DNA of 62,458 bases, the filler included, from Basidiobolus ranarum (Eukaryota), in NCBI GenBank assembly GCA_040143965.1. It is 22 parts of 22 records of this genome, joined end to end, with 100 filler letters (N's around TTAATTAATTAA, not from the genome) between each part and the next. Parts side by side here need not be neighbours in the genome. Positions count along the whole stretch, not along the records: positions 19,962 to 22,709 come from JASJQH010009887.1; 21 more parts are not named here. The stretch is one strand, 5' to 3'. The position numbers were made by a program, and so were the translations under genes. A model generated the notes under the pieces. It saw nothing but the letters and a program-made list of their open reading frames with translations. It was not told where the DNA came from and searched no databases. This document shows, piece after piece, positions 2,922 through 59,725 of this stretch. Numbering within the stretch: position 1 is the stretch's first letter; each line of letters starts with the position of its first letter.

Positions 2922-3500
2922 CTATACGGCAGGACAGCTGGAACACTTGCAGTCATCACCACAACAGCACTTGCCCTTCTTAGCATCGCATGATTCACAC
3001 TTGCAATCTTCGCCACAGCAGCATTTGCTTTCCTTGGCTTGCTCGCATTTGCAGTCAGCTCCGCATTCACACTTGTCACCACAGGTGCACTTGTTCTTCA
3101 CTTGCTCACATTTGCAGTCAGCTCCACATTCACACTTGTCGCCACAGGTGCAGTTGGTCTTCTTGGCTTTTTCGCATTTGCAGTCAGCTCCACATTCACA
3201 CTTGTCACCACAAGTGCAGTTGGTCTTCTTGACTTTTTCGCATTTGCAGTCGGCTCCACAGTCACACTTGTCACCACAGGTGCAAGTGGATTGCTTCTTT
3301 CCTTGGCAGTTGGTGCACTTGCAGTCACTTCCGCATTGGCAAGCTGGAACTTCAACAGTCTTGGCACACTCACACTTGACACAAGTGCAGTTATCCTTGC
3401 AAGAGCAAGATTGCTTCACTTCGACCTTTTGGCACTTGCATTGTTCGCACTGGCAGTTCTCACCACAGCAGCAGATCTTTACGGTTTGTTGAGAGGACAT
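2922..3500 (-). CDS. Very long modular metallothionein (192 aa, 54 Cys)
   Basis: Nine Cys clusters (CxC, CCC, CxxC), including four near-identical CTCGDKC(D/E)CGADCKC units. No aromatic residues or His. TATA-like TATATAAAAG ~60 bp upstream. Intronless ORF from ATG to stop. Confidence 0.9.
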   Translation of the reverse strand: MSSQQTVKICCCGENCQCEQCKCQKVEVKQSCSCKDNCTCVKCECAKTVEVPACQCGSDCKCTNCQGKKQSTCTCGDKCDCGADCKCEKVKKTNCTCGDKCECGADCKCEKAKKTNCTCGDKCECGADCKCEQVKNKCTCGDKCECGADCKCEQAKESKCCCGEDCKCESCDAKKGKCCCGDDCKCSSCPAV

Positions 3501-3981
3501 TGTTAAAAGTTAATTGAAAATTATTGAATGATAAAGGTACACGTATATGTGTGTCTCTTTTATATATCTTCATGCTAACTGTTATCATGCGTTCTGAATG
3601 CACTGGGGCGAATTTCTTCGTCATCAAAATAGAGCCAATAGCGTAAGTCACTCAGTTGATTTTAATTGATTAACCAATAAAACAGTGATGAAATGATATT
3701 CGCACCTTTCATTGGATAGAGTATTATCATTTAACTCTGAATGGTCAAGTTCTATCGGTTCAATAGATCTATTGTGGCGGGTGATTGCGTAAGCTCGCTG
3801 ATTTTGTCTCACATTCAACGGTTGGATATATATGGAATTTATGATAGCTCCTCTAAGATTAAACCAATTATGAATATGAAATACAATGTAATGATTTTTC
3901 AAGAATTTATTGTATAATTTCAATTGAATTTACAAATTTACGAAAGAGTAAGGATAACGATAACAAGAGCTTGTGACAATT

Positions 3982-14262: not shown

Positions 14263-15173
14263 CATGGGTCAATTGTAGGCGCATCATTATTCTGAATTGC
14301 AACTCTATCTTGGAAGAATAGGGTGAATTCTCTGAATGGGCAGTCAGGATGAGAGTGTTGATCTTCCTCGGCATAAAAATCGTATCTCTTGGGACATCCT
14401 CCATTTAAAGGATAAGGATGAATATCCACATGTATACCATCTACAGTTGGTTTTCCTGTGGTCGGATCAGTCCAGAGAGAGCCTCTAGGTTCGACAATTA
14501 TGGCGCCGAATAATCCATGGACCACTGTTCCAGTTGGTGAGCCATCATAAGAACCACCATCAGAGATCAAGTAAGTACCTTCCCTCAAACAAGGCCATGT
14601 ATATTCTTTCTCTTGTCCTGAGTTGATTAAACTGGTAGGGTTTACTCCTACGGAAGTTCCGTCATTCTGGATGTCGTACCCATAAAGATAAGGGTGCATT
14701 CCGACCTCACGACCTTGAATGTTGTTTGTGAATTTGACATGAATTTTATCACCTTGATTACAACGTAGCACGAGTGGTTTCACTAGAGGATCCATAGGTA
14801 AAGCAGTAGAATTCTGACTCAAAAGTCCTAAAATGTTATCACGGTAATTGCTGAGATGTTCAAGATTCTCCTTCAAAGCAAACATGACACCATTGACATC
14901 AAAATCGCCCCATGAGTTCAGCACAATTGGCATCGGGATCGCGGAAACTTCATACAGACGAGTTTGAGGAACAAGTCTTTGCCGCATGTCCGACTTACCT
15001 CTGTTTCCGTTCCTTCTCGAGTCTCTACCTGTAGAACGAGAGCCGTTATTTTCGTAGGACGAGACACTGGGAAGTAATAAACTTAACATCAGTAATATCA
15101 GCAACAAGTAGACCAGAGAATGGAGCACTCGGCCCTGGTGCCGTTCACGCTTTGATGGCCTATTATTGAGCAT
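14263..15173 (-). CDS. MnxG-like large multicopper oxidase, N-terminal part (truncated by contig end)
   Basis: N-terminal hydrophobic signal/anchor, then YEVSAIPMPIVLNSWGDFDVNGVMFALKEN, PLVLRCNQGD, HGLFGAIIVEPRGSLWTDPTTG and FREFTLFFQD, matching my recollection of domain 1 of Bacillus MnxG-type oxidases. First ATG at 15173; TATATAAG near 15232-15239. Confidence 0.8.
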
Positions 15174-15920
15174 CGTTGAGTGACACCAGTATATACTTGA
15201 GCTGATGAGTTTTGTTTGTACCACATCTCATCTTATATACTACCTAAGAACCAGGATTTGTCAGAGAGTTGTGCACTTTGTAACTTGATGAAGAGAGGGA
15301 TTTTGGCTTCAAGAGTTTGAAAAAAAGCAGGCCATGCAGTTGGCATACAAATCCTTGCATGTTACTTGTGGTGATACATTCGAGTGCGTTAGTTTCAATA
15401 AATTCCTATATACTTCGATAGCGAGATGTTTTGGCCTGTAATCCGTGATGTGAAACTGGTTATTAAAAATTGTTACACAGTTTAGATACTTGTTTGATCG
15501 TATTGTAAATATAGATTAGCAGGTATAAATATTTGACACTTTGAATGTGGCAACTGGTTGGATTGTGATAAATACAAAGTTAATCAGAGACTCTAAGAAA
15601 GAGATTGATGCCTTGAACATAGTAAAATATCCACTATAAGCATTGCAGAAATAAAGATCAAAGAACTAGAAACACCAGTAATGATATAAAATGCCAACAT
15701 TAAGGGGTATTTCTATTCCATGCTACGGGGTTAGTAAAATGAACCCCCTAGATTGATGACATCCGCACCTGTTTATTTAAAGAGATTGCTTGAATTATAG
15801 GGTTGAGTATCAACATTACTTCTGTGGAATTTTCTGAAATAGATAAAGTCAATTCTCAAAATGTGAAATATGTTCAAGAAAAAGATCTAATTTTATTGTA
15901 AAATTCAGGATAGCAATTCA

Positions 15921-17012
15921 TTATTTGTGCACACGGAAAATACCCCAGCTCTCTAATAAGTACTCTGTATTTAACCATCCAGTTCTATATGCCCAGTCTC
16001 CAGTGCTATTGCTGGCTGTAAACTCATTTGCAATACTTGACCCAGGACCGATAGCATTGTTGACTGAGGAGACACCATGTTGCGGTGCCTTCAGCTGATC
16101 AATCCACGCATGACCATGGAGATGGAATGATTGTGGTCTTGATTTGTCCAAACCACTGACAACATATAGAATTTGTCGAACACCAGCAAGTGCATGGAAT
16201 ATTTCAGTCGAGGGGCGACTATTTTGCAACCAGCGAGTAGCAAATGCTGGTTGATTCCTATAGCTCATGGCTTTCAGTCCTGCGTCCTGGAAATTGACAC
16301 CAGCCTCACCTGGCACAGGAGTAGTAACGTTGGACAAAACTTGGAATGGGAAGCCAGTAGCATAAGGAATTGGTGTGTTGGCAGCGTTGTTTTGGAACAA
16401 GCGTAGGCCAGATTGCAATATCACCACTTTGTCCTGATAAAGTAATCGCCCACGACGTGCTTTACCACCGTAAACATTAGTGTGATAGTAAACATTGGAT
16501 TCAGCGCCAATCCAATTTTCTGGTACTTCATGTGCAGGCAGAATTACAAGAGCTCCAATCAATCCGTGGTGCTTATGATTGCGAATATCGGCATGATCTT
16601 GTAGTGGAAGAGCTCCTAAATGTTGATCTGCATACCAATTATAAACTCTTGTGCGTCCAGGAGCTACTGTAGAGTCTTCATTATAACCAATATTGGTACC
16701 ATCATCATATCTTACATCATGCTGTATGAGCGGACAATGCATAGATACTCTGCTAGAGACTCTACGATTTGGATCATCTACTGGAACAGGAACGGCAAAT
16801 GGTTCAGGAGCAAGGTGTTTGGGCAGCCCATTATGCAAATGAAGCTGAATACGCTCTCCAACTAGGCCTCGAATAATCAGTGGATCAACTTTGTTTCCTT
16901 TTACATTGAAGCATTCCCGGTTCTTTGGCTTGATGATCTTTGGTGACCGTGGCTCTTGATATCCTGTCAAGCAGTAAATCAAGCCATAAGGATCACTCCA
17001 TCCATCTGTATT
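15921..17012 (-). CDS. MnxG-like multicopper oxidase, C-terminal cupredoxin domains of an upstream tandem paralog (5' truncated)
   Basis: PLIIRGLVGE, RVSMH, DGTNIGYNEDSTVAPG, DHADIRNHKHHGLIGAL, SFHLHGHAW, GDWAYRTG...WGIFRV; open to the contig edge, no introns. Confidence 0.82.
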   Translation of the reverse strand, partial: NTDGWSDPYGLIYCLTGYQEPRSPKIIKPKNRECFNVKGNKVDPLIIRGLVGERIQLHLHNGLPKHLAPEPFAVPVPVDDPNRRVSSRVSMHCPLIQHDVRYDDGTNIGYNEDSTVAPGRTRVYNWYADQHLGALPLQDHADIRNHKHHGLIGALVILPAHEVPENWIGAESNVYYHTNVYGGKARRGRLLYQDKVVILQSGLRLFQNNAANTPIPYATGFPFQVLSNVTTPVPGEAGVNFQDAGLKAMSYRNQPAFATRWLQNSRPSTEIFHALAGVRQILYVVSGLDKSRPQSFHLHGHAWIDQLKAPQHGVSSVNNAIGPGSSIANEFTASNSTGDWAYRTGWLNTEYLLESWGIFRVHK

Positions 17013-19571: not shown

Positions 19572-19861
19572 ATGCTTTTCTTTCAAAAATTCATCTTGAT
19601 CGGCACTGCCACCATTTCTCTGCTTATGCCAACTATCGCTGCTCCTAATGGACGCAATCAGCCTGAACTCACTGCTAACCCAGAGTATGTGGAGTTGTAC
19701 AAGAAGGCTAAAGCATGTGGTGACAGCTTTCCAGCTACTTTACAGAGTGTTCCCACAGGCATGGAGGAAAGATTCAAGGAATGTGTCAAAATATTGGAAG
19801 AGTTCATTGTTAGCTCACATCAGCCAGACAACTCAGTGGAAAAGCGAGGTGTTGACGGTAG
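19572..19861 (+). CDS. Secreted protein of unknown function, 3' truncated
   Basis: Signal-peptide-like N-terminus (MLFFQKFILIGTATISLLMPTIAAP), two Cys, a Kex2-type EKR just before the contig end; TATATAAG at 19504. Confidence 0.7.
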
Positions 19862-20646
19862 NNNNNNNNNNNNNNNNNNNNNNNNNNNNNNNNNNNNNNN
19901 NNNNNTTAATTAATTAANNNNNNNNNNNNNNNNNNNNNNNNNNNNNNNNNNNNNNNNNNNNAAACCAAATCTATACTTCTTGCTGCTCATAGAATTACTC
20001 CAAGAATAAACTACAAGCGTGAGATTTTAAAGATTATTCTATCAGCCTGAACATCAATTTTAGTCTTCTCATACATGCTGTAGCCTTGTCATTTCCTTTG
20101 TAGATTAATGATGAATTGCTAATGAAAACTAGTTAAGACAACCTTTGATCCAGATTTCTCAAGCTTCCTTTCGTTATTTATTAATTTTTATCAATAACAT
20201 CACAAAGAACAAGGGAATTACTTTAATATTGAGAGAAAACTGTTATTTCGATTCAAATTAAGCTAGATACCAAATGCCAGTTTACCTTCGGATGGATGGT
20301 AAATGGATTCATAGTGAATGTAGTAGAGTTGCCTTTGGTACTTGATGTAACCCTTAATGAATATGGTGGCTTAGTAACAAGAGATTATTGGTTGTTAGCA
20401 CATTAAGGTAATCTTTACTATTAGAATCAACTTACTGACGAATTGAATAATGAACTGTATTGAGATATCTTAAAAATCATATGAAATTACGAATCTTCAT
20501 CACTTTTGACGTTATACTGGGTGGCTTGGCTTTCAAGTATAACACTGTATAAGCCACATCTTGGTTATATAAGCGTTCAACTAAACCTCCATATTCTCAT
20601 ATTCGATTACCTTTACGAATACACATAAAAACAGCAAACCTTTAAC

Positions 20647-21594
20647 ATGGTTCATAACCATCAATCTGGAAACCACAGTCAGCAAAATCACTCCCTTTCG
20701 GGCCATGGCAGTCAACAGGAGAGGGAAGAACGCGAAAATCAATACAAGAGAGGATTAGCCGGGAGACGTGGACAACAAAATAATGTTCGCTCTCGCTATG
20801 GCCGTCAATACGAAGAAGATGAGCAAGAGGAGGAATACGAGAGAGGTTTGAATGGCAGACGTGGACAACAGAACTACCCTCGTTCTCGTTATGGTCGTCA
20901 GTATGAAGAAGATGACCAGGAAGAAGAGTATGAGAGAGGTTTGAATGGAAGACATGGTCAACAAAACTATCCTAGCTCTCGCTATGGTCGTCAGTACGAA
21001 GAGGACGAGCAAGAAGATGAGTATGAGAGAGGCTTAAACGGAAGACGTGGTCAGCAAAACTATCCTCGCTCTCGCTATGGTCGTCAGTACGAAGAAGATG
21101 AGTACGAGAGAGGTTTGAATGGCAGACGTGACCAACAGAACTATCCTCGCTCTCGTTATGGCCGTCAGTATGAGGAAGACGAATACGAGAGGGGCTTGAA
21201 CGAAAGACGTGGTCAACAAAACTATCCTCGCTCTCGTTATGGCCGTCAGTATGAGGAAGATGAGTACGAAAGAGGCTGGAACAGCAGACGTGGTCAACAA
21301 AACTATCCTCGCTCTCGCTATGGTCGTCAGTATGAAGATGAGCAAGAAGATGAATATGAGAGAGGCTTAAATGGAAGACGTGGTCAACAAAACTACCCTC
21401 GCTCTCGTTATGGTCGTCAGTACGAGGAGGACGAGCAAGATGATGAATATGAGAGAGGTTTGAATGGAAGGCATGGTCAACAGAACTATCCTCGCTCTCG
21501 TTATGGTCGCCAATACGAAGATGAGCAAGACAGCCAATACGAAAGAGGTTTGAATGGCAGACGTGGTCAGCAAAACCATTCCCGAGGACTTTGA
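20647..21594 (+). CDS. Tandem-repeat, low-complexity protein (315 aa; 9 full + 1 partial repeats of YERGLNGRRGQQNYPRSRYGRQYEEDE[QEDE])
   Basis: Complete ORF; TATATAAG at 20566; AACATGG start context; AATAAA near 21668; repeat units differ mainly at third codon positions. Confidence 0.88.
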   Translation: MVHNHQSGNHSQQNHSLSGHGSQQEREERENQYKRGLAGRRGQQNNVRSRYGRQYEEDEQEEEYERGLNGRRGQQNYPRSRYGRQYEEDDQEEEYERGLNGRHGQQNYPSSRYGRQYEEDEQEDEYERGLNGRRGQQNYPRSRYGRQYEEDEYERGLNGRRDQQNYPRSRYGRQYEEDEYERGLNERRGQQNYPRSRYGRQYEEDEYERGWNSRRGQQNYPRSRYGRQYEDEQEDEYERGLNGRRGQQNYPRSRYGRQYEEDEQDDEYERGLNGRHGQQNYPRSRYGRQYEDEQDSQYERGLNGRRGQQNHSRGL

Positions 21595-22809
21595 TATGGA
21601 TAACCTGATAGTTACAATTTAAAAAATTCCTGATTGAAGTGTTTGTTATCAGTGATATTCAAATTAAAATAAATCCATTTGTGTCCGAAGTCCAGTCATT
21701 TTTGATATTGTTGAAACAAAATATACTGTAATTAGTTGGTGGCTATCTATCGCAGATTTTGCATATACACAAAGCTTCTCTTACTATCCACACTGGCCAT
21801 ATAGTACCTTTCTATGCCGTTACCACAGCATAGAATCCAAGGATCAGGACAAAACTAAAGGTATCACAGATCGTCCATCAATCAACAATATACGTAATTA
21901 CAAAACCACCCAAATTTTATCTGAATAATTCGAAGCATTAGTTGCTTCGTGGATTTTCATAGATTTTTAAAGTAAATTAACCCTAAACCTAAACGAATAT
22001 CCAGTATTGAATTGGTTGTCATATCCAAATGAAACACTAGTGAGGAAGTTATCCAAATGAAATAATAGTAATCAAGCCCACCATCTGCAGTATTTTAGTC
22101 GGATTACTAGGATGTCTGTTAAATTCTTGATCTCACATTTGAAGTATTCTTCCTGAAACAGTTTCTAATTCAAGTCCTAATACAGCAAGGATTCCAGCTA
22201 CGAATCTAGTTCGTAATTCGATTTCCGATCTAGGTACGTATCGAGTTCTTGATTCAGTGAAGTGTACAGCTTTCCAAAATATGTCGTACCACATACCACA
22301 TACCACATACCGCATACCACATTGTACCATAAAGTTAACTCTCGTTCTTATCTGATTTTCAAGAAACAAATCCGAATTATCAGATGATCCAAGAGTAACC
22401 AACCTCATAATAGTTTAGAAAAATCACTATCGGTTAAATTGGTTCTAAACAAGATTTCTCCTTCGGAGATTGTATTGGGTAGTAATTAGATTTGTTATGC
22501 TAACCCGAGATCTCTTTTCATGACTCTTACATCACGGACACGAATGGATGAAGAGTATTAATTGGATCAAGAGCAACTTGGAAAATCCCCATCCTTCTCA
22601 TCCAAATATGCACGAGTTTCCTTCTGAAAATCCAGGTGAAAATATATCCTTGGTCAAAGTTGATGATATATTATAGTGATTGTTGAAGTTGCCATGGTTC
22701 CACTGAAATNNNNNNNNNNNNNNNNNNNNNNNNNNNNNNNNNNNNNNNNNNNNTTAATTAATTAANNNNNNNNNNNNNNNNNNNNNNNNNNNNNNNNNNN
22801 NNNNNNNNN

Positions 22810-25554
22810 TGAAATGAGGATGTGACTTTCGTCTTCTGCAATTGTTGCCTTAAAAAAAACCATATTTCCACAAAAAGGGAGCGGATAATACTTCATCCCA
22901 ATTTTGAAATTGTTTTCTATGATACACCGGACTTTTGCCAATACTTCGCTTTTGTCATACTTATCAGCACTGTAGCCAGGAATATTTAAATAATTAATCA
23001 GTTGCTCCATGTTGGGTAGTTTTTTCAGACGAGTATAGTCTATAGGGCTATCCATTAAAGCTAGTAGTGCGACGATTTCATTTTGTTGTTGAAGTAGTAT
23101 CGCAATGCAATGAGCGATACTACCACCAAAGGACCATCCTAGCAGATAGTATGGCCCAGTCGGTTGGATTTTACGAATCTGATCGAGGTAGTCTAAAGCC
23201 ATCGCTTCAATTGTCTCAGGAAGTGGCTCATTATCATTAAATCCACGGGCTTGCAAACCATAAATAGGTTGTTTTGAGCCTAAATGCTTAGATAAGCTAA
23301 TATAACTCCAACTCAGGCCGATGACGGGATGTATGCAAAATAGTGGAGGACGATTATCGTTTACTTGAATAGGAAGCAAAACATCGAACTGGTTACTTTC
23401 GTCATCATGCTTCACCTGTATCATTTCTGCCAATTCTACTAGAGATGGTGCTTCCAAAAGAACCCTCAAGCCTACATTCTTGCCCAACCTTTCGCGAATA
23501 TGGCTAATCATCCGCACAGCAAGGAGTGAATGACCACCAAGTTCCGAGAAGTTATCATGGCGACTCACCCGCTCTAGGCCTAGCAAATCAGACCAGATTT
23601 TTGCTAACATTATCTCAATTTCACCTTTTGGGGCTTCATACGCTTTGTGAGCAAAAGACTCTATATCCGGTGGTGGCAGTGCCCGGCGGTTGAGTTTACA
23701 ACTGGAGGTTAATGGCAAGGCATCCATGCGTACAAAGGCGGTCGGCAGCATGTACTCGGGTACTTTCAATGCCAAATAGGAGCGTAATATACGGGTAAGG
23801 TACTCTTCTTGTGCTGCTACAACATATGCGACCAGTCGTTTGTCACCTTCATCACCCAGGGCAAGAACCGCTGCCTCTCTTACCTGTGGGTGCTCAACAA
23901 GATGCGCCTCAATCTCCTCAAGCTCGATTCGATGACCGCGTATTTTGACCTGAGAGTCATTACGGCCTAGAAACTCTATATTCCCATTTGGTAGGTGGCG
24001 AGCCAGGTCTCCTGTCTTATACATGCGTGACCCAATATCTTTGGTGAATGGATCCTGAGAAAAGCGTTCAGCAGTCAGCTCAGGTCGGTTCAGATAGCCA
24101 CGCGCTACACCTACTCCACCAACATACAGTTCACCTATGGCCCCCAATGGGACGGGATGGCCGTACGGATCCAGTATATAGATACGAGTGTTTGATATTG
24201 GTTGGCCCATGGTAACAACACCATTGCTTATCTCAGGTGAGCAACGCCATGTGGTAGACCAGATGCTAGTTTCAGTTGTGCCGTATGCATTGAAAACAAC
24301 ACCATGTTTGAGTAGAGACTCAAGTAATGCTGCTCTGGGTGCTTCGCCTGTCAAAAGCAATGTCAAAGGATTACTTAAAGTAGGTAAATCATTACCATTT
24401 TGAAGTAGAGCTGGAGAGAACACTGCATGAGTGATTGCATATTTTTCCATATAATTCCACAATTCATATCTATTAAGACGGACAATATTTGAGGGTATAT
24501 ATAAACTTGCACCAGATCCTAAGGCTCCAAAGATCTCAGAAATACTCACGTCGAAACCAAAAGTGGCGAATTGTAGGAGTCGACTTGATGCATTTACTCC
24601 GCAACAAGATATTTGATCTTGAATGAGATTCACAATGCCTCGATGCTCCAGCATCACACCTTTTGGAATGCCAGTAGAACCAGAGGTATAGATCACGTAG
24701 GCGAGATGACGTGAGGTCAGTCCAATTACATGAGGATTACTTGAAGATGAATCCAGTAACATATTTGGATCAAGCACTGTCAGTTGGGCTAGAGTTGACT
24801 CACCTAATGCAGCGCGTCCAATTTCATCAGCCAGCATGACAGAAGGTGCGGCATCTTTAAGAATGCGCCCCAGTCGCTCTAGTGGGAGCGTTGGATCAAG
24901 AGGTACATTGACACCGCCTGCCTTCAAGATTGCCAGCAGTCCTACCACCATTTCAAGTGATCGTCCCACACAGATTGCTACAGGCTCATCAGGTCGAACA
25001 CCTAGCTCAATAAGCTGATGCGCGAGACGGTTAGCGTGAGCATTCAACTCGGCATAACTTAAAATCTGATCTTCGTATACGACAGCAATGGCTTCCGGTG
25101 TACGTACAACCTTTTCCTCAAAGAGTTGATGAATACACTTGTGTTCAGGATATGGCATATCGGTATCATTCCATTGCATTAGCAACTGTTGCCTCTCCTC
25201 AGGGGTAATTATGTCTATACCAGTGACATGCTTTGATGGGTTTGTTGTGAGAGTATCGAAGAGAGCTAAAATACGATTTTGATGTAATATTAAATCATTA
25301 GCTGTATAAAGCTCTGGGTTTGCCGCAAAGTCAATTCTAAGAGGATCATCTTTAGACCCAATATATATAGTGATAGTCAGATCATCAATAGGACCTGTAA
25401 GGAGGTTATGTACTGTCGACAAATGTTGCCCAAAATACACGCTGTGGTCAAATGGCACAAAGCTAATTGTAGGACCAAATAAGTGTTGATTTTTCCTGAG
25501 ACGAGGATCTCGTTTTAGCTCCTCGCTCCGATAGCTTTGGTGTTTTAATCCGCA
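22810..25554 (-). CDS. Bacterial-type NRPS terminal module: C (starter-like, partial)-A-PCP-TE, truncated at both ends
   Basis: LSYAELN, YVIYTSGSTGIPKG, GELYVGGVGVARGYLNRPELT, YKTGDL, QVKIRGHRIEL; PCP LGGHSLL; TE GWSFGG; intronless over 2.7 kb. Confidence 0.95.
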
Positions 25555-25959
25555 TNNNNNNNNNNNNNNNNNNNNNNNNNNNNNNNNNNNNNNNNNNNNT
25601 TAATTAATTAANNNNNNNNNNNNNNNNNNNNNNNNNNNNNNNNNNNNNNNNNNNNATTATGTGGTATTTAGTTTATTCATAATCTGATTACTTAGCACTA
25701 AATTCTGCCATTCAAAAGTTGTGTGTTTATTGCTTCCATTGAAAGAAATGTCAATTAGTTCACTTTTAACAAATTTCATTTTTTCTCTAAACAGCTCCTA
25801 CTCATCTCAAATTTTTGCCCCTGCATTACAGACATGACTGTTATGATATAAGCATTGTACAATAGTCCTATTTCATAGTAAACCATAACTAGGACATATG
25901 CATTTCCATATAACTCCAGTGTCTAGGTCTCATGAAAAATTTCTCATTTGGTGAAAAAG

Positions 25960-56892: not shown

Positions 56893-57716
56893 CTCAAAAC
56901 AATTCCTCCAGCACTGTTGCGGATGGTGTTGTAGCGGATTGTAGCCTTACTGGACTTGACAGAAATGATTTCTGGGTCACCATCACATGATTCAAATAGG
57001 TTGTATTGAACATTGGCACCGGCTTCGGGGCCATTAGGGAAATTTGGATGAGTATTTCCTAATGCGATAGCTTCACCACCATTGTCGGAGGCAGGAATAA
57101 GGTCATGGAAGTAAGAACGATCAATTTGCAAGTTGGTAGCAATAGGGACTGTCTTGGAGGCTCCATTGGAAGCCATGATAATTGGTGAACCCTGGCCTCG
57201 CTTTGGTCCAAATTCACAACGATCAATACGAACTGAATCTGAAGTAGATTTGACTACAAGCCAATCGTGATTTTTTCCATCGGTGGGATCTCTAATCTTG
57301 AATGAAGATCTTGTGATACGGCAACTCTGGCAACCTTCAATTTCAATTCGTTGACCTGAGCCACTGAAGGTGAAGCCATCAAGCACTACATACGAATTGT
57401 CCCTGAATTTGAAATCTTTGGTGAGAACAGCCTTACCAGTATTCTTAGCACGGATCACAATTGGTGCTTTCTGAGTTCCTTTAGCATTACGAATGTCACC
57501 AAGAGCACTATAGTCACCATCGTTTAGAATGAAACATGAACCAGGTTTAGCCTTTCCGAGTTTAGCGACAAGGTCCTTAACATTGCCTATTGGTAGTGTT
57601 TGGACGCATGATGGAAGTGGGTCATTCAGGATGTCACTTTTGGGGATGGCAGCATTGGCAGTGAAGAAGACTGTCGCAAGTACGGTGCTTGCAAGGAGGG
57701 TAGATAGATGAACCAT
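56893..57716 (-). CDS. Secreted polysaccharide lyase family 6 (alginate lyase/chondroitinase B-like beta-helix), 3' truncated
   Basis: Signal peptide; AKPGSCFILNDGDY, GTQKAPIVIRA, NGGEAI.LG and NLFESCDGDPEIISVKS..ATIRYNT motifs; intronless. Confidence 0.88.
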
Positions 57717-59725
57717 AATGAATATGGTTTATGAGAAGAGGCATGTATGGCTATTTATGTGGGTTATTAGGTGGCTGTTTGCTGATTGTACAAGGTCAGA
57801 ATGATGTATTGTGCTCAAACAACCCAATGAAAAAGAAAATGGATCCAGAGACTTGTACAGGTACTACTATAGCAAACTTCCATACACCTAAACCTTATTA
57901 ACTAAAGCTCATGATTTCTTTTCACAGTGACCGAGATTATATAGGTACTTATTTTGGGCTGATATTCTGCAGTTGGAATAGGTGAATACAGTTTACACAA
58001 TTGATTTGATTACAGGGGTGTAACGTAACTGAGTAGAACTGTTAGCACAATACAAGTTGAAGATCCTTGGTAATCTTAGAGTAACGGCATATCTTGAATA
58101 CCATCACTACAATGTAAAGAGTTGAACTACTCTGCGCATGAACAATCTTTGTTTCCCAAATTGTAAAGATTGCAGTGATTTTCCATATAGAAGGATCAGC
58201 CATGTTAATGGAAAATTTGAGCTGATTTCACACGTTGCCTATAACGCTTGTTACACGGCAAAATCGTCATCATTGATGCCAATGAAAGTTGGGGGAAAAT
58301 CAAAACAAATATCCGAAATAGGACAACTATTTCAAGTGCCGGGTTCAAGTATTTCATTTAGATAATCATAGAGACAAAGTAAAATAGGGCCTTAGCACAT
58401 CAAAATCCGATTAAAAACAATTATTGAATGCAATAATGAGTGATGTTATCAATTGATTGGTAACAAAAGAATTACGTAAATAGTAATTGTGATTCTAGTT
58501 ATAAACACTCAGTCTATGAAGCATATATATTACTGCAGGTAATGATGCAGCTTAAAGGGGGAAACTTGGGCCAACATCCTTGGGGGTTAATAGATTACCC
58601 ATGATAGGGAGTTTAGTTTATGTTTATTGGTACCAATACCAGGTTTGCTATGAAGCGTATAGATAACATCAACTAAATCGCATGATGTAATATTCATCCC
58701 AACAAAGTTAATATATCCATTTGAGTGTTGTCTCACAAGCTTAATTATCTAGAATTCACAGAGCATCTGGCCTAAGTATGTAGTAAACGCCTTCTACCAT
58801 GACATAGCATATCTCTGCTACTTTTTATGTTCAAGAGAATGATAATATGAACTAAGTGTTTGTATATTCTGCACATCGTTGCCAATGATCATTTATCATA
58901 TGATCTCACAGTCAATCTGTACTACCCTAAGGTTTGCTCGAGGCTATTACTCAAGTCTATGGGGTACAGTTACATTTCCTCCAAAACCTGTTGCTTCATA
59001 AGTTACTGTTCCGTGGACATCTTTCTTATGGACTCCTCTACCTGAATATATTCATATAGCGACTTGGCTTGTATGAGGATAGACTCAGTCTACGCGTCAA
59101 CTTCTACACTCCCGCCTAAGTAAAAAGAAATAGTGGAGACTGAGACTTTTATTTGCTGTGCTTCCTTCTCGCGTTACGCAACTTGGTTCTGTGGTCATTT
59201 GCACCTCTATGGTCTGTGAATATTTAGGTCTCACGAAACTCATAGTCCGCTTTTTCCACCAATTCATCCTCTATGTATCCAGTTTTGCTTTTATTTCTTC
59301 TTTCTTTGGCAAATGACCCTTTATTCATGTATGCCCAAGTTACACACTCCTATATTCTTAGCGCTTGCACAAGCCACTTTGTATTCAGCCCTCTCGAATG
59401 GAGAGCACAATCTATTTAATACTCCGATCGTCTAGCTATTAGGTTGTATTGTAATTGGCATCCTATTTAGCCTTGAAAGATTCTACTGTTTCCACGGCTA
59501 TAACAATACTATTTAACTCTAGCAGAATGTTGGCCATCTTTACTACTAGATATTCTTCCAATGGGCTAGGTAAGTATGGTGTTTACACGCACTAGACTCT
59601 GCCGGTTCTGTACGCGGTAATTCATNNNNNNNNNNNNNNNNNNNNNNNNNNNNNNNNNNNNNNNNNNNNTTAATTAATTAANNNNNNNNNNNNNNNNNNN
59701 NNNNNNNNNNNNNNNNNNNNNNNNN

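Follow-up and report, generated by a model that had tools for sequence, protein, structure and literature searches.

A dispersed Basidiobolus ranarum family of Arg/Tyr-rich tandem-repeat proteins, predicted to be disordered, with a promoter element in common

The intronless ORF at 20647..21594 (plus strand) of the Basidiobolus ranarum DNA analysed here is a real gene, confirmed by purifying selection on its product, a protein rich in Arg, Glu, Gln, Gly and Tyr that lacks a signal peptide and is predicted to be disordered. It belongs to an unannotated, multi-copy family with its own cis-element, akin to the disordered repeat proteins that resemble hydrophilins or form condensates. As it lacks a secretion signal, the protein is probably bulk intracellular material and not a source of hormone-like peptides, and we put at roughly 0.5 the probability that it is an uncleaved intracellular polyampholyte, assembling through Tyr/Arg contacts, that serves as a nitrogen store or protectant of spores. 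The DNA analysed (the window) is a stretch of 62,458 nucleotides made of 22 unrelated contigs of about 2.75 kb each, joined by N/TTAATTAATTAA linkers. Since the contig that carries the gene (G000:C9887; 19962..22709) has an artificial linker on both sides, the neighbours of the gene in the window are not its genomic neighbours; an NRPS module (A-PCP-TE domains; 22762-25599, minus strand), which lies on the next, unrelated contig, was rejected as a neighbour for this reason.

Other contigs of the window carry, on the minus strand, a very long (about 190 aa) metallothionein-like Cys-rich repeat ORF with a 66-nt tandem unit (2922-3509), matched weakly and below the cut-off by a plant PEC metallothionein family; a multicopper-oxidase-like gene in two long open frames (14263-17012); and a chondroitinase B-like beta-helix protein whose N-terminus is signal-like (56893-57728), a bacterial-type family in a fungus. 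On the plus strand, a small secreted protein that has a KR site is represented by its start alone (19572-19861), being cut off by the contig end, and has no Pfam match. Elsewhere in the genome we observed a two-domain globin, a bacterial-like globin fused to a protoglobin (L174:1-1056; G000:C783), and a secreted Cys-framed protein with an 11-residue Ser/Thr/Lys tandem repeat (L149:215-1759; G000:C357).

The product of the ORF has 315 residues (38.8 kDa), of which 18% are Arg, 16% Glu, 13% Gln, 13% Gly (12.7%) and 11% Tyr, with a single Lys (Arg:Lys 57:1), a net charge of -7 and a GRAVY of -2.48. A polar His/Gln/Ser/Asn segment (residues 1-32; 20647..20742), which varies among paralogs and is never hydrophobic, precedes nine complete repeat units of 31, 31, 31, 27, 27, 27, 30, 31 and 30 residues (20743..21537), each made of a conserved 24-residue Arg/Tyr/Gly/Gln core and an acidic linker. 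The sequence-only reading had counted ten units of 27-31 residues; the tenth is a truncated unit of 18 residues, followed by the stop codon (21538..21594). The GRR and SRYGR motifs on which that reading had drawn are present in six and nine copies, RR occurs in 8 of the 10 units, and the protein contains 35 RG/GR and 9 YG dipeptides. By sequence match, an AATAAA at 21668..21673 (plus strand) is a possible polyadenylation signal.

When the nine 24-codon cores are compared, variable columns number 20 at third codon positions, 6 at first and 6 at second positions, and pN/pS within the gene is 0.097, or 0.063 when the first unit is left out. In a six-frame test the frame of the ORF gave a pN/pS of 0.108 and no stops, its antisense shadow gave 0.188 with 31 stops, and the remaining four frames gave 1.5-2.0; an antisense or other coding frame was thus rejected, by its stops or its high ratio. 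It is the combination of a low ratio and zero stops, found in the ORF frame alone, that places the protein under selection, as had been proposed from conserved protein sequence with varying synonymous sites. Between genes, with one core taken from each of 13, pN/pS is 0.26. The units of one gene differ at 13.9 positions per 72 nt and those of different genes at 19.8, a pattern consistent with homogenisation of the repeats under purifying selection while the genes themselves undergo birth-and-death turnover.

Genes with the unit type of the window copy (type A, units of about 31 residues) account for 70 tblastn matches on 47 contigs of the genome, which is a lower bound. A rough scripted census found 26 of 49 contigs with frames open as far as assembled (several of these being halves ended by contig ends), 21 broken and 2 without a core. 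Two further types, B (units of about 20 residues, 7 contigs) and C (Met-containing units of about 19 residues, 3 contigs), were missed by tblastn and found through the promoter motif described below. The A and C types align with 40% identity, many gaps and an E value of 6e-5, so that their common descent is likely on the alignment, and one B gene retains an A-type YERGLNGR stretch near its N-terminus; what the three types have in common is composition rather than one core. The copies are dispersed, each among different unrelated neighbours. A genome duplication was rejected as the cause of the copy number, since it explains a doubling and not about 57 contigs. The proteasome alpha-subunit genes of this genome (L101-L109) are paired, at about 70-74% identity, which suggests that the genome was duplicated long ago. 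An ORF with SpvB and FG-GAP Pfam matches (L089:7921-9999; G000:C22), about 2 kb away from a dead copy of the family, resembles the B component of bacterial toxin complexes, and a B-type gene is divergent from a gene for a P-type cation ATPase, PMR1-like as judged by eye (L179; G000:C44:26200-32000), with two sites of the promoter motif in their common region.

The sequence-only reading had held that a match to a known family would remove the novelty of the protein, and none emerged from Pfam, protein, profile, PDB or metagenome searches. Pfam returned no family for the ORF and, for eight B-type proteins, only five weak single-member hits; word-seeded searches among proteins of near length only returned 0 of 8000, 0 of 5349 and 1 of 8000, the last a B. 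ranarum fragment; and a profile run against 1.84 billion representatives returned five hits, namely three short B. ranarum models and two unrelated repeats. The metagenome searches gave 218 and 142 pattern matches, none of them confirmed, the PDB sequence search no match, and ESM features no usable hit. An exact look-up in a collection of 15 billion sequences found none of 11 repeat proteins (nine A-type, two B-type). The only real homologues found, P0001-P0003 and P0007, are short gene models under the name Basidiobolus ranarum, possibly from this same genome and so uninformative on distribution, and in public protein sets the family is represented by these four fragments only. A fasciclin of this genome matches a B. 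ranarum protein record (P0008) exactly. As the intact repeat genes are unannotated, absence from the protein sets of other species is weak evidence of lineage restriction. The open-licence literature yielded no description of the repeat family or of its promoter element.

Upstream of the gene, a TATA box (TATATAA; 20566..20572, plus strand) is followed by no ATG or acceptor-like splice signal up to the start codon. The sequence-only reading had noted before it an inverted repeat, GTGGCTT...AAGCCAC, and both arms are present, at 20521 and 20551. Taken by itself, the window sequence gives little reason to heed them: 44 inverted pairs of at least 7 nt occur in the 739 nt upstream, which is chance level, and the window promoter is equalled in folding by 36 of 200 shuffles (z -0.93). 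The repeat is meaningful only because it is conserved across paralogs, in which the spacer diverges but neither the 7-mers nor the TATA box are lost. The pattern GTGGCTT-N16-36-AAGCCAC-N7-10-TATA occurs in 27 rows on 24 contigs, against none for the reversed control; 23 of these contigs belong to the family and the remaining match is at a contig end. The 23 paired promoters have spacers of 19-34 nt and, in every case, a gap of 7-8 nt to the TATA box; in 14 of them the bases next to the arms are not complementary. A hairpin or cruciform was rejected on account of the folding score, the variable spacer, the non-complementary flanks and the mostly direct orientation of the site partners in B-type genes. 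The inverted repeat is better read, from this conservation, as two copies of a putative transcription-factor site, GGTGGCTTRG: an upstream site (GGTGGCTTGG; 20520..20529, plus strand), 126 nt 5' of the ATG, and a TATA-proximal, inverted site (GTGGCTTAT on the minus strand; 20549..20557), 8 nt 5' of the TATA box. A third, distal copy (GGTGGCTTAG; 20365..20374, plus strand) had gone unmentioned.

The consensus, (T)GGTGGCTTRG, derives from 29 sites. An inverted proximal copy is typical of A-type genes, and the site is found in all five B-type genes for which a 5' end is available, the nearest copy at -108 to -133 from the ATG. A third copy, about 190-250 nt before the TATA-proximal site, is found in 6 of 27 family promoters, including that of the window gene, where composition predicts 0.07; the six are related copies. 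In the dead copy on C22, both the upstream site and the TATA box have decayed. No closely spaced direct pair of sites occurs in the genome. A single site with a TATA box occurs 62 times, against 22 in the control, and the excess is mostly family; 18 non-family loci of this kind, when inspected, had no clear common theme. Six further pair matches that share a 49-51-nt element were set aside as non-regulatory, since the two inspected (C1479, C4852) are located within or beside a transposon-like frame.

The lack of a signal peptide, already apparent in the first reading, holds for the family: none of the ten members tested by hydropathy has a hydrophobic N-terminus, the best 12-residue values being -1.4 to -1.9, against +2.2 and +2.4 in two secreted controls. 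Nor does the window gene have an upstream ATG with a splice donor, or an acceptor before the repeats; the hydrophobic short ORFs at 20296 and 20481, considered as an upstream signal exon, were rejected because they are 5' of the TATA box, terminate in stops and lack a donor. In 20 of 23 promoters the start Met is found 79-92 nt 3' of the TATA box. These observations bear on an earlier proposal, that of a secreted precursor processed by Kex2 to release amidated, RYamide-like peptides. According to Umemura 2020 (PMC7329392), KEPs have an ER signal peptide and at least three repeats of at least 8 residues between KR, KK, RK or RR, and both the Zoopagomycota and Basidiobolus are rich in them. The window copy, with its tandem units and RR in so many of them, agrees with the repeat-and-dibasic part of this definition and in this resembles ustiloxin-type precursors too. 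However, the defining signal peptide is absent, so the repeat protein is not a KEP, and the KEP detection filter of that paper cannot list signal-less proteins. Cut sites are not conserved either: over 107 cores, a set that includes truncated terminal units, GRR is present in 46, any dibasic pair in 76, KR in 9 and RYGR in only 54, and the FGR forms would yield no RYamide. An RYamide-type precursor would combine a secretory route with a conserved Tyr-Gly-Arg amidation signal, and the family has neither. Unlike the KEPs and ustiloxin-type precursors, it also has no DUF3328 neighbour. We regard release of amidated peptides through Kex2 as scarcely credible.

A cytosolic precursor, cut by proteases other than Kex2 into bioactive linear or cyclic peptides, would evade the argument from secretion. 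Signal-less precursors are known among the cyclic peptides of fungi and plants, the conserved cores of the family are separated by variable acidic linkers and encoded in many gene copies, and the open frame of a cytosolic C1B peptidase follows one sampled promoter-type site at a distance of about 460 nt. The same 107 cores, however, contain no invariant cut site, no leader is conserved across the paralogs compared, and the three unit types are alike in composition and not in one core. Moreover, the sequence-only reading had suggested looking around the gene for DUF3328 oxidases or peptidases, and neither adjoins any copy in 13 neighbourhood stretches; for DUF3328 this also leaves a dikaritin RiPP without its expected partner. 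The scan took in ORFs of at least 105 residues on 12 contigs, so that short exons or small contigs could hide one, and together with other motif loci it comprised 111 ORFs (a list of 116, minus 8 repeat-frame ORFs, plus 3), among which no DUF3328, peptidase or tyrosinase was found. A cytosolic precursor is, on balance, very improbable.

In its bulk properties the family is uniform. Fourteen proteins measured have a GRAVY of -2.07 to -2.60, 9-21% Gly, 12-17% aromatic residues and a net charge per residue between -0.05 and +0.03, and nitrogen makes up 20.0-21.5% of their mass (20.6% in the window protein), against 16.9% in one control protein. Neutrality extends to single units, 72 of 88 in type A, 22 of 27 in type B and 8 of 11 in type C having a net charge of -1 to +1. 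AlphaFold2 models have a pLDDT of 37.4 (A-type) and 42.0 (B-type) and no secondary structure. ESM Atlas models, by contrast, align to solenoid-like models with TM scores of up to 0.78 and 0.75, and with a tightly conserved core rich in Gln, Asn and Tyr they might be taken as evidence of a beta-solenoid or functional amyloid with a structural role, formed through folding or polymerisation of the repeats; the pLDDT of these models is, however, just 0.52-0.53, 39% of residues are charged and there is no hydrophobic 12-residue window, and we consider such a fold very unlikely.

Two kinds of known protein resemble the family in its predicted disorder. Hydrophilins are defined, in PMC11277543, by more than 6% Gly and a hydrophilicity index above 1.0, and all 14 proteins exceed both values when the index is read as negative Kyte-Doolittle. 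With hydrophilins and LEA-like proteins, as described there, the family has in common its Gly content, extreme hydrophilicity, disorder and intracellular nature without a signal peptide; it differs in having no LEA or other Pfam match and in consisting of long Arg/Tyr-rich tandem polyampholytes, with scarcely any Lys, Ala or Thr, in dozens of copies. The second likeness is to the N-terminal region of Ddx4, which, according to Nott et al. 2015 (PMC4352761), has charge blocks of 8-10 residues with RG/FG motifs and concentrates single-stranded DNA. The repeat proteins likewise combine disorder with alternating basic and acidic blocks, and with RG/GR and aromatic-Gly motifs inside the basic ones, but they are stand-alone, strictly periodic and non-homologous, use Tyr and not Phe, and lack a helicase domain. 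The precedent, together with the conserved R-S-R at core positions 16-18 (93, 93 and 92 of 107) and the abundance of RG/GR, could speak for scaffolds, under the control of Arg methylation or RSR-motif phosphorylation, of a nuage-like condensate that holds RNA or DNA, for instance to store the mRNA or ribosomes of dormant cells. We find this rather unlikely, as net charge is zero to slightly negative, Pfam searches revealed no RNA-binding domain, and dozens of copies suggest bulk supply over a regulatory scaffold.

Whether charge blocks drive self-association can be addressed by calculation. In each of the 13 A-type proteins, local blockiness (kappa) is higher than in any of 100 shuffles, which does not hold for the C-type one. 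SCD, a measure of long-range charge decoration, is however less negative than the shuffle mean in all 14 proteins, and the critical temperature given by RPA, a salt-free calculation of electrostatics only, without cation-pi contacts, was equalled by 4, 10, 8 and 9 of 15 shuffles for four proteins; in this calculation the family also departs from the Ddx4 model. Given that the order of charges brings no computed gain, self-association, if any, would probably proceed via Tyr/Phe-Arg contacts. At core position 19, 57 of 107 residues are Tyr and 34 Phe, an exchange as expected of aromatic stickers. The first hypothesis of the sequence-only reading, a disordered, self-coacervating or nitrogen-rich storage protein, for example in spores, is therefore upheld as to predicted disorder, nitrogen content and near-zero net charge, whereas coacervation through charge blocks finds no support in these calculations.

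In the genome as a whole, the 10-mer site occurs 467 times, against 138 for the reversed control. Fifty-six of the first 100 sites listed were inspected, all of the TTAG form and with A-type genes and earlier-seen loci excluded; of the first 40, 11 are inside ORFs and 3 precede B-type genes, and the 56 include two upstream of signal-less fasciclin genes and one upstream of a perilipin gene, with at least two sites at 7 loci. Sites near TATA boxes are not enriched overall (12 of 55 against 300 of 1680), which makes a wider regulon a lead only, and the cases that suggest one are anecdotal. The fasciclin genes (L183:626-2422, G000:C491; L116, G000:C25) have no evident signal peptide and two GTGGCTT sites each before a TATA box; the second FAS1 domain of the C491 protein contains a 266-residue insert with YGRGRR-type repeats and near-zero charge (24% Arg, 30% Asp/Glu, 20% Gly). 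The perilipin gene (L170:921-1550; G000:C636) has two GTGGCTTAG sites upstream. In two paralogous genes for small single-C2-domain proteins (L079, G000:C100; L080, G000:C8724) GGTGGCTTAG is kept exactly 7 nt before TATAAAA, and in each of two genes for paralogous secreted proteins with a His after the signal peptide, LPMO-like by eye (L057, G000:C2283; L058, G000:C12128), AAGCCAC is found 9 nt before TATAAAT.

As to the factor itself, Rpn4 acts through PACE, the proteasome element of proteasome subunit promoters, and was rejected because GTGGCTTRG is present in none of 12 proteasome alpha-subunit upstream regions. The site comes nearer to the Crz1/CrzA response element (CDRE), the consensus of which is given as GNGGC(G/T)CA in PMC3704241 and PMC3233502: it has the GGTGGCT core of the yeast FKS2 element and the AGCCAC of the Aspergillus fumigatus pmcA element cited there. 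It continues with TRG, however, where that consensus needs CA, so that a plain CDRE in the form these sources give was rejected. The calcipressin promoter of this genome contains a canonical CDRE match and not the family site.

The fasciclins raise the alternative of an extracellular glue or coat, in which the repeat proteins would coacervate together with the putatively co-regulated fasciclins, for example as the beak adhesive of the capilliconidium, after release by rupture of the cell or wall without passage through the ER. Reflectins and mussel foot protein 3 are disordered, self-assembling repeat materials rich in Tyr, Arg and Gly, mussel foot protein 3 being secreted and cationic. The composition of the family recalls them, its own self-assembly being only proposed, and no search revealed a sequence relationship. 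Basidiobolaceae produce capilliconidia, and in Drechslerosporium the beak is covered with adhesive, as stated in PMC13370150. Two fasciclin genes carry the site and one encodes the Arg/Asp/Gly-rich insert. Nevertheless, all ten repeat proteins tested and the C491 fasciclin lack a signal peptide, Tyr often gives way to Phe, from which DOPA cannot be formed, and no tyrosinase was found among the ORFs scanned; a glue is quite unlikely.

Thus we return to the intracellular polyampholyte, for which the following course of events may be envisaged. The window gene would be one active copy of a large, dispersed Basidiobolus family in birth-and-death turnover, and we infer that one transcription factor, binding two or three GGTGGCTTRG sites by the TATA box, turns the family on jointly, at a high level and at a specific stage. 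The product would remain in the cytoplasm or nucleus, unfolded and uncut into peptides. Each unit brings 4-6 arginines, a similar number of acidic residues and 3-4 aromatics, a composition expected to make the chains neutral, highly soluble when dilute and mutually sticky, via Tyr/Phe-Arg contacts, when abundant. In spores or resting cells they would form a bulk deposit or gel, a store of arginine and glutamine nitrogen and a protection against drying, to be degraded at germination. Some observations run against this reading. A pure nitrogen store would need neither 12-17% of costly aromatics nor tight conservation; the order of charges gives no computed advantage; and the codon bias of A-type genes is only intermediate (-0.06 to +0.02, against 0.17-0.23 in the ribosomal training genes and -0.16 to +0.07 in other test genes).

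Cyanophycin is a bacterial, non-ribosomal nitrogen polymer of Arg and Asp. The repeat proteins resemble it in having about one arginine per acidic residue and in being nitrogen-rich and neutral; they are, in contrast, gene-encoded and contain aromatic residues, and the analogy is no more than that. A bolder version, which we hold to be doubtful, is a gene-encoded counterpart of cyanophycin, in which the dozens of charge-neutral Arg/Tyr repeat genes and a signal-less fasciclin scaffold, whose low-complexity insert is comparable, driven by one factor, would build a dedicated condensate, either a spore nitrogen granule or a capilliconidial glue.

In any event, a multi-copy family under selection, with its own promoter element, is almost missing from public protein sets, and since standard annotation missed its intact genes, similar systems may hide in other early-diverging fungi. 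The GGTGGCTTRG element would offer a direct route to a regulator of development or stress in a genus whose gene regulation is little known, and the three natural unit types are a ready series for the rules of Tyr/Arg stickers and charge neutrality. If the proteins are a spore reserve or protectant, an early-diverging fungus would have provided a defined example of a storage or condensate protein; should they prove to be a glue, the capilliconidial adhesive would have been identified.
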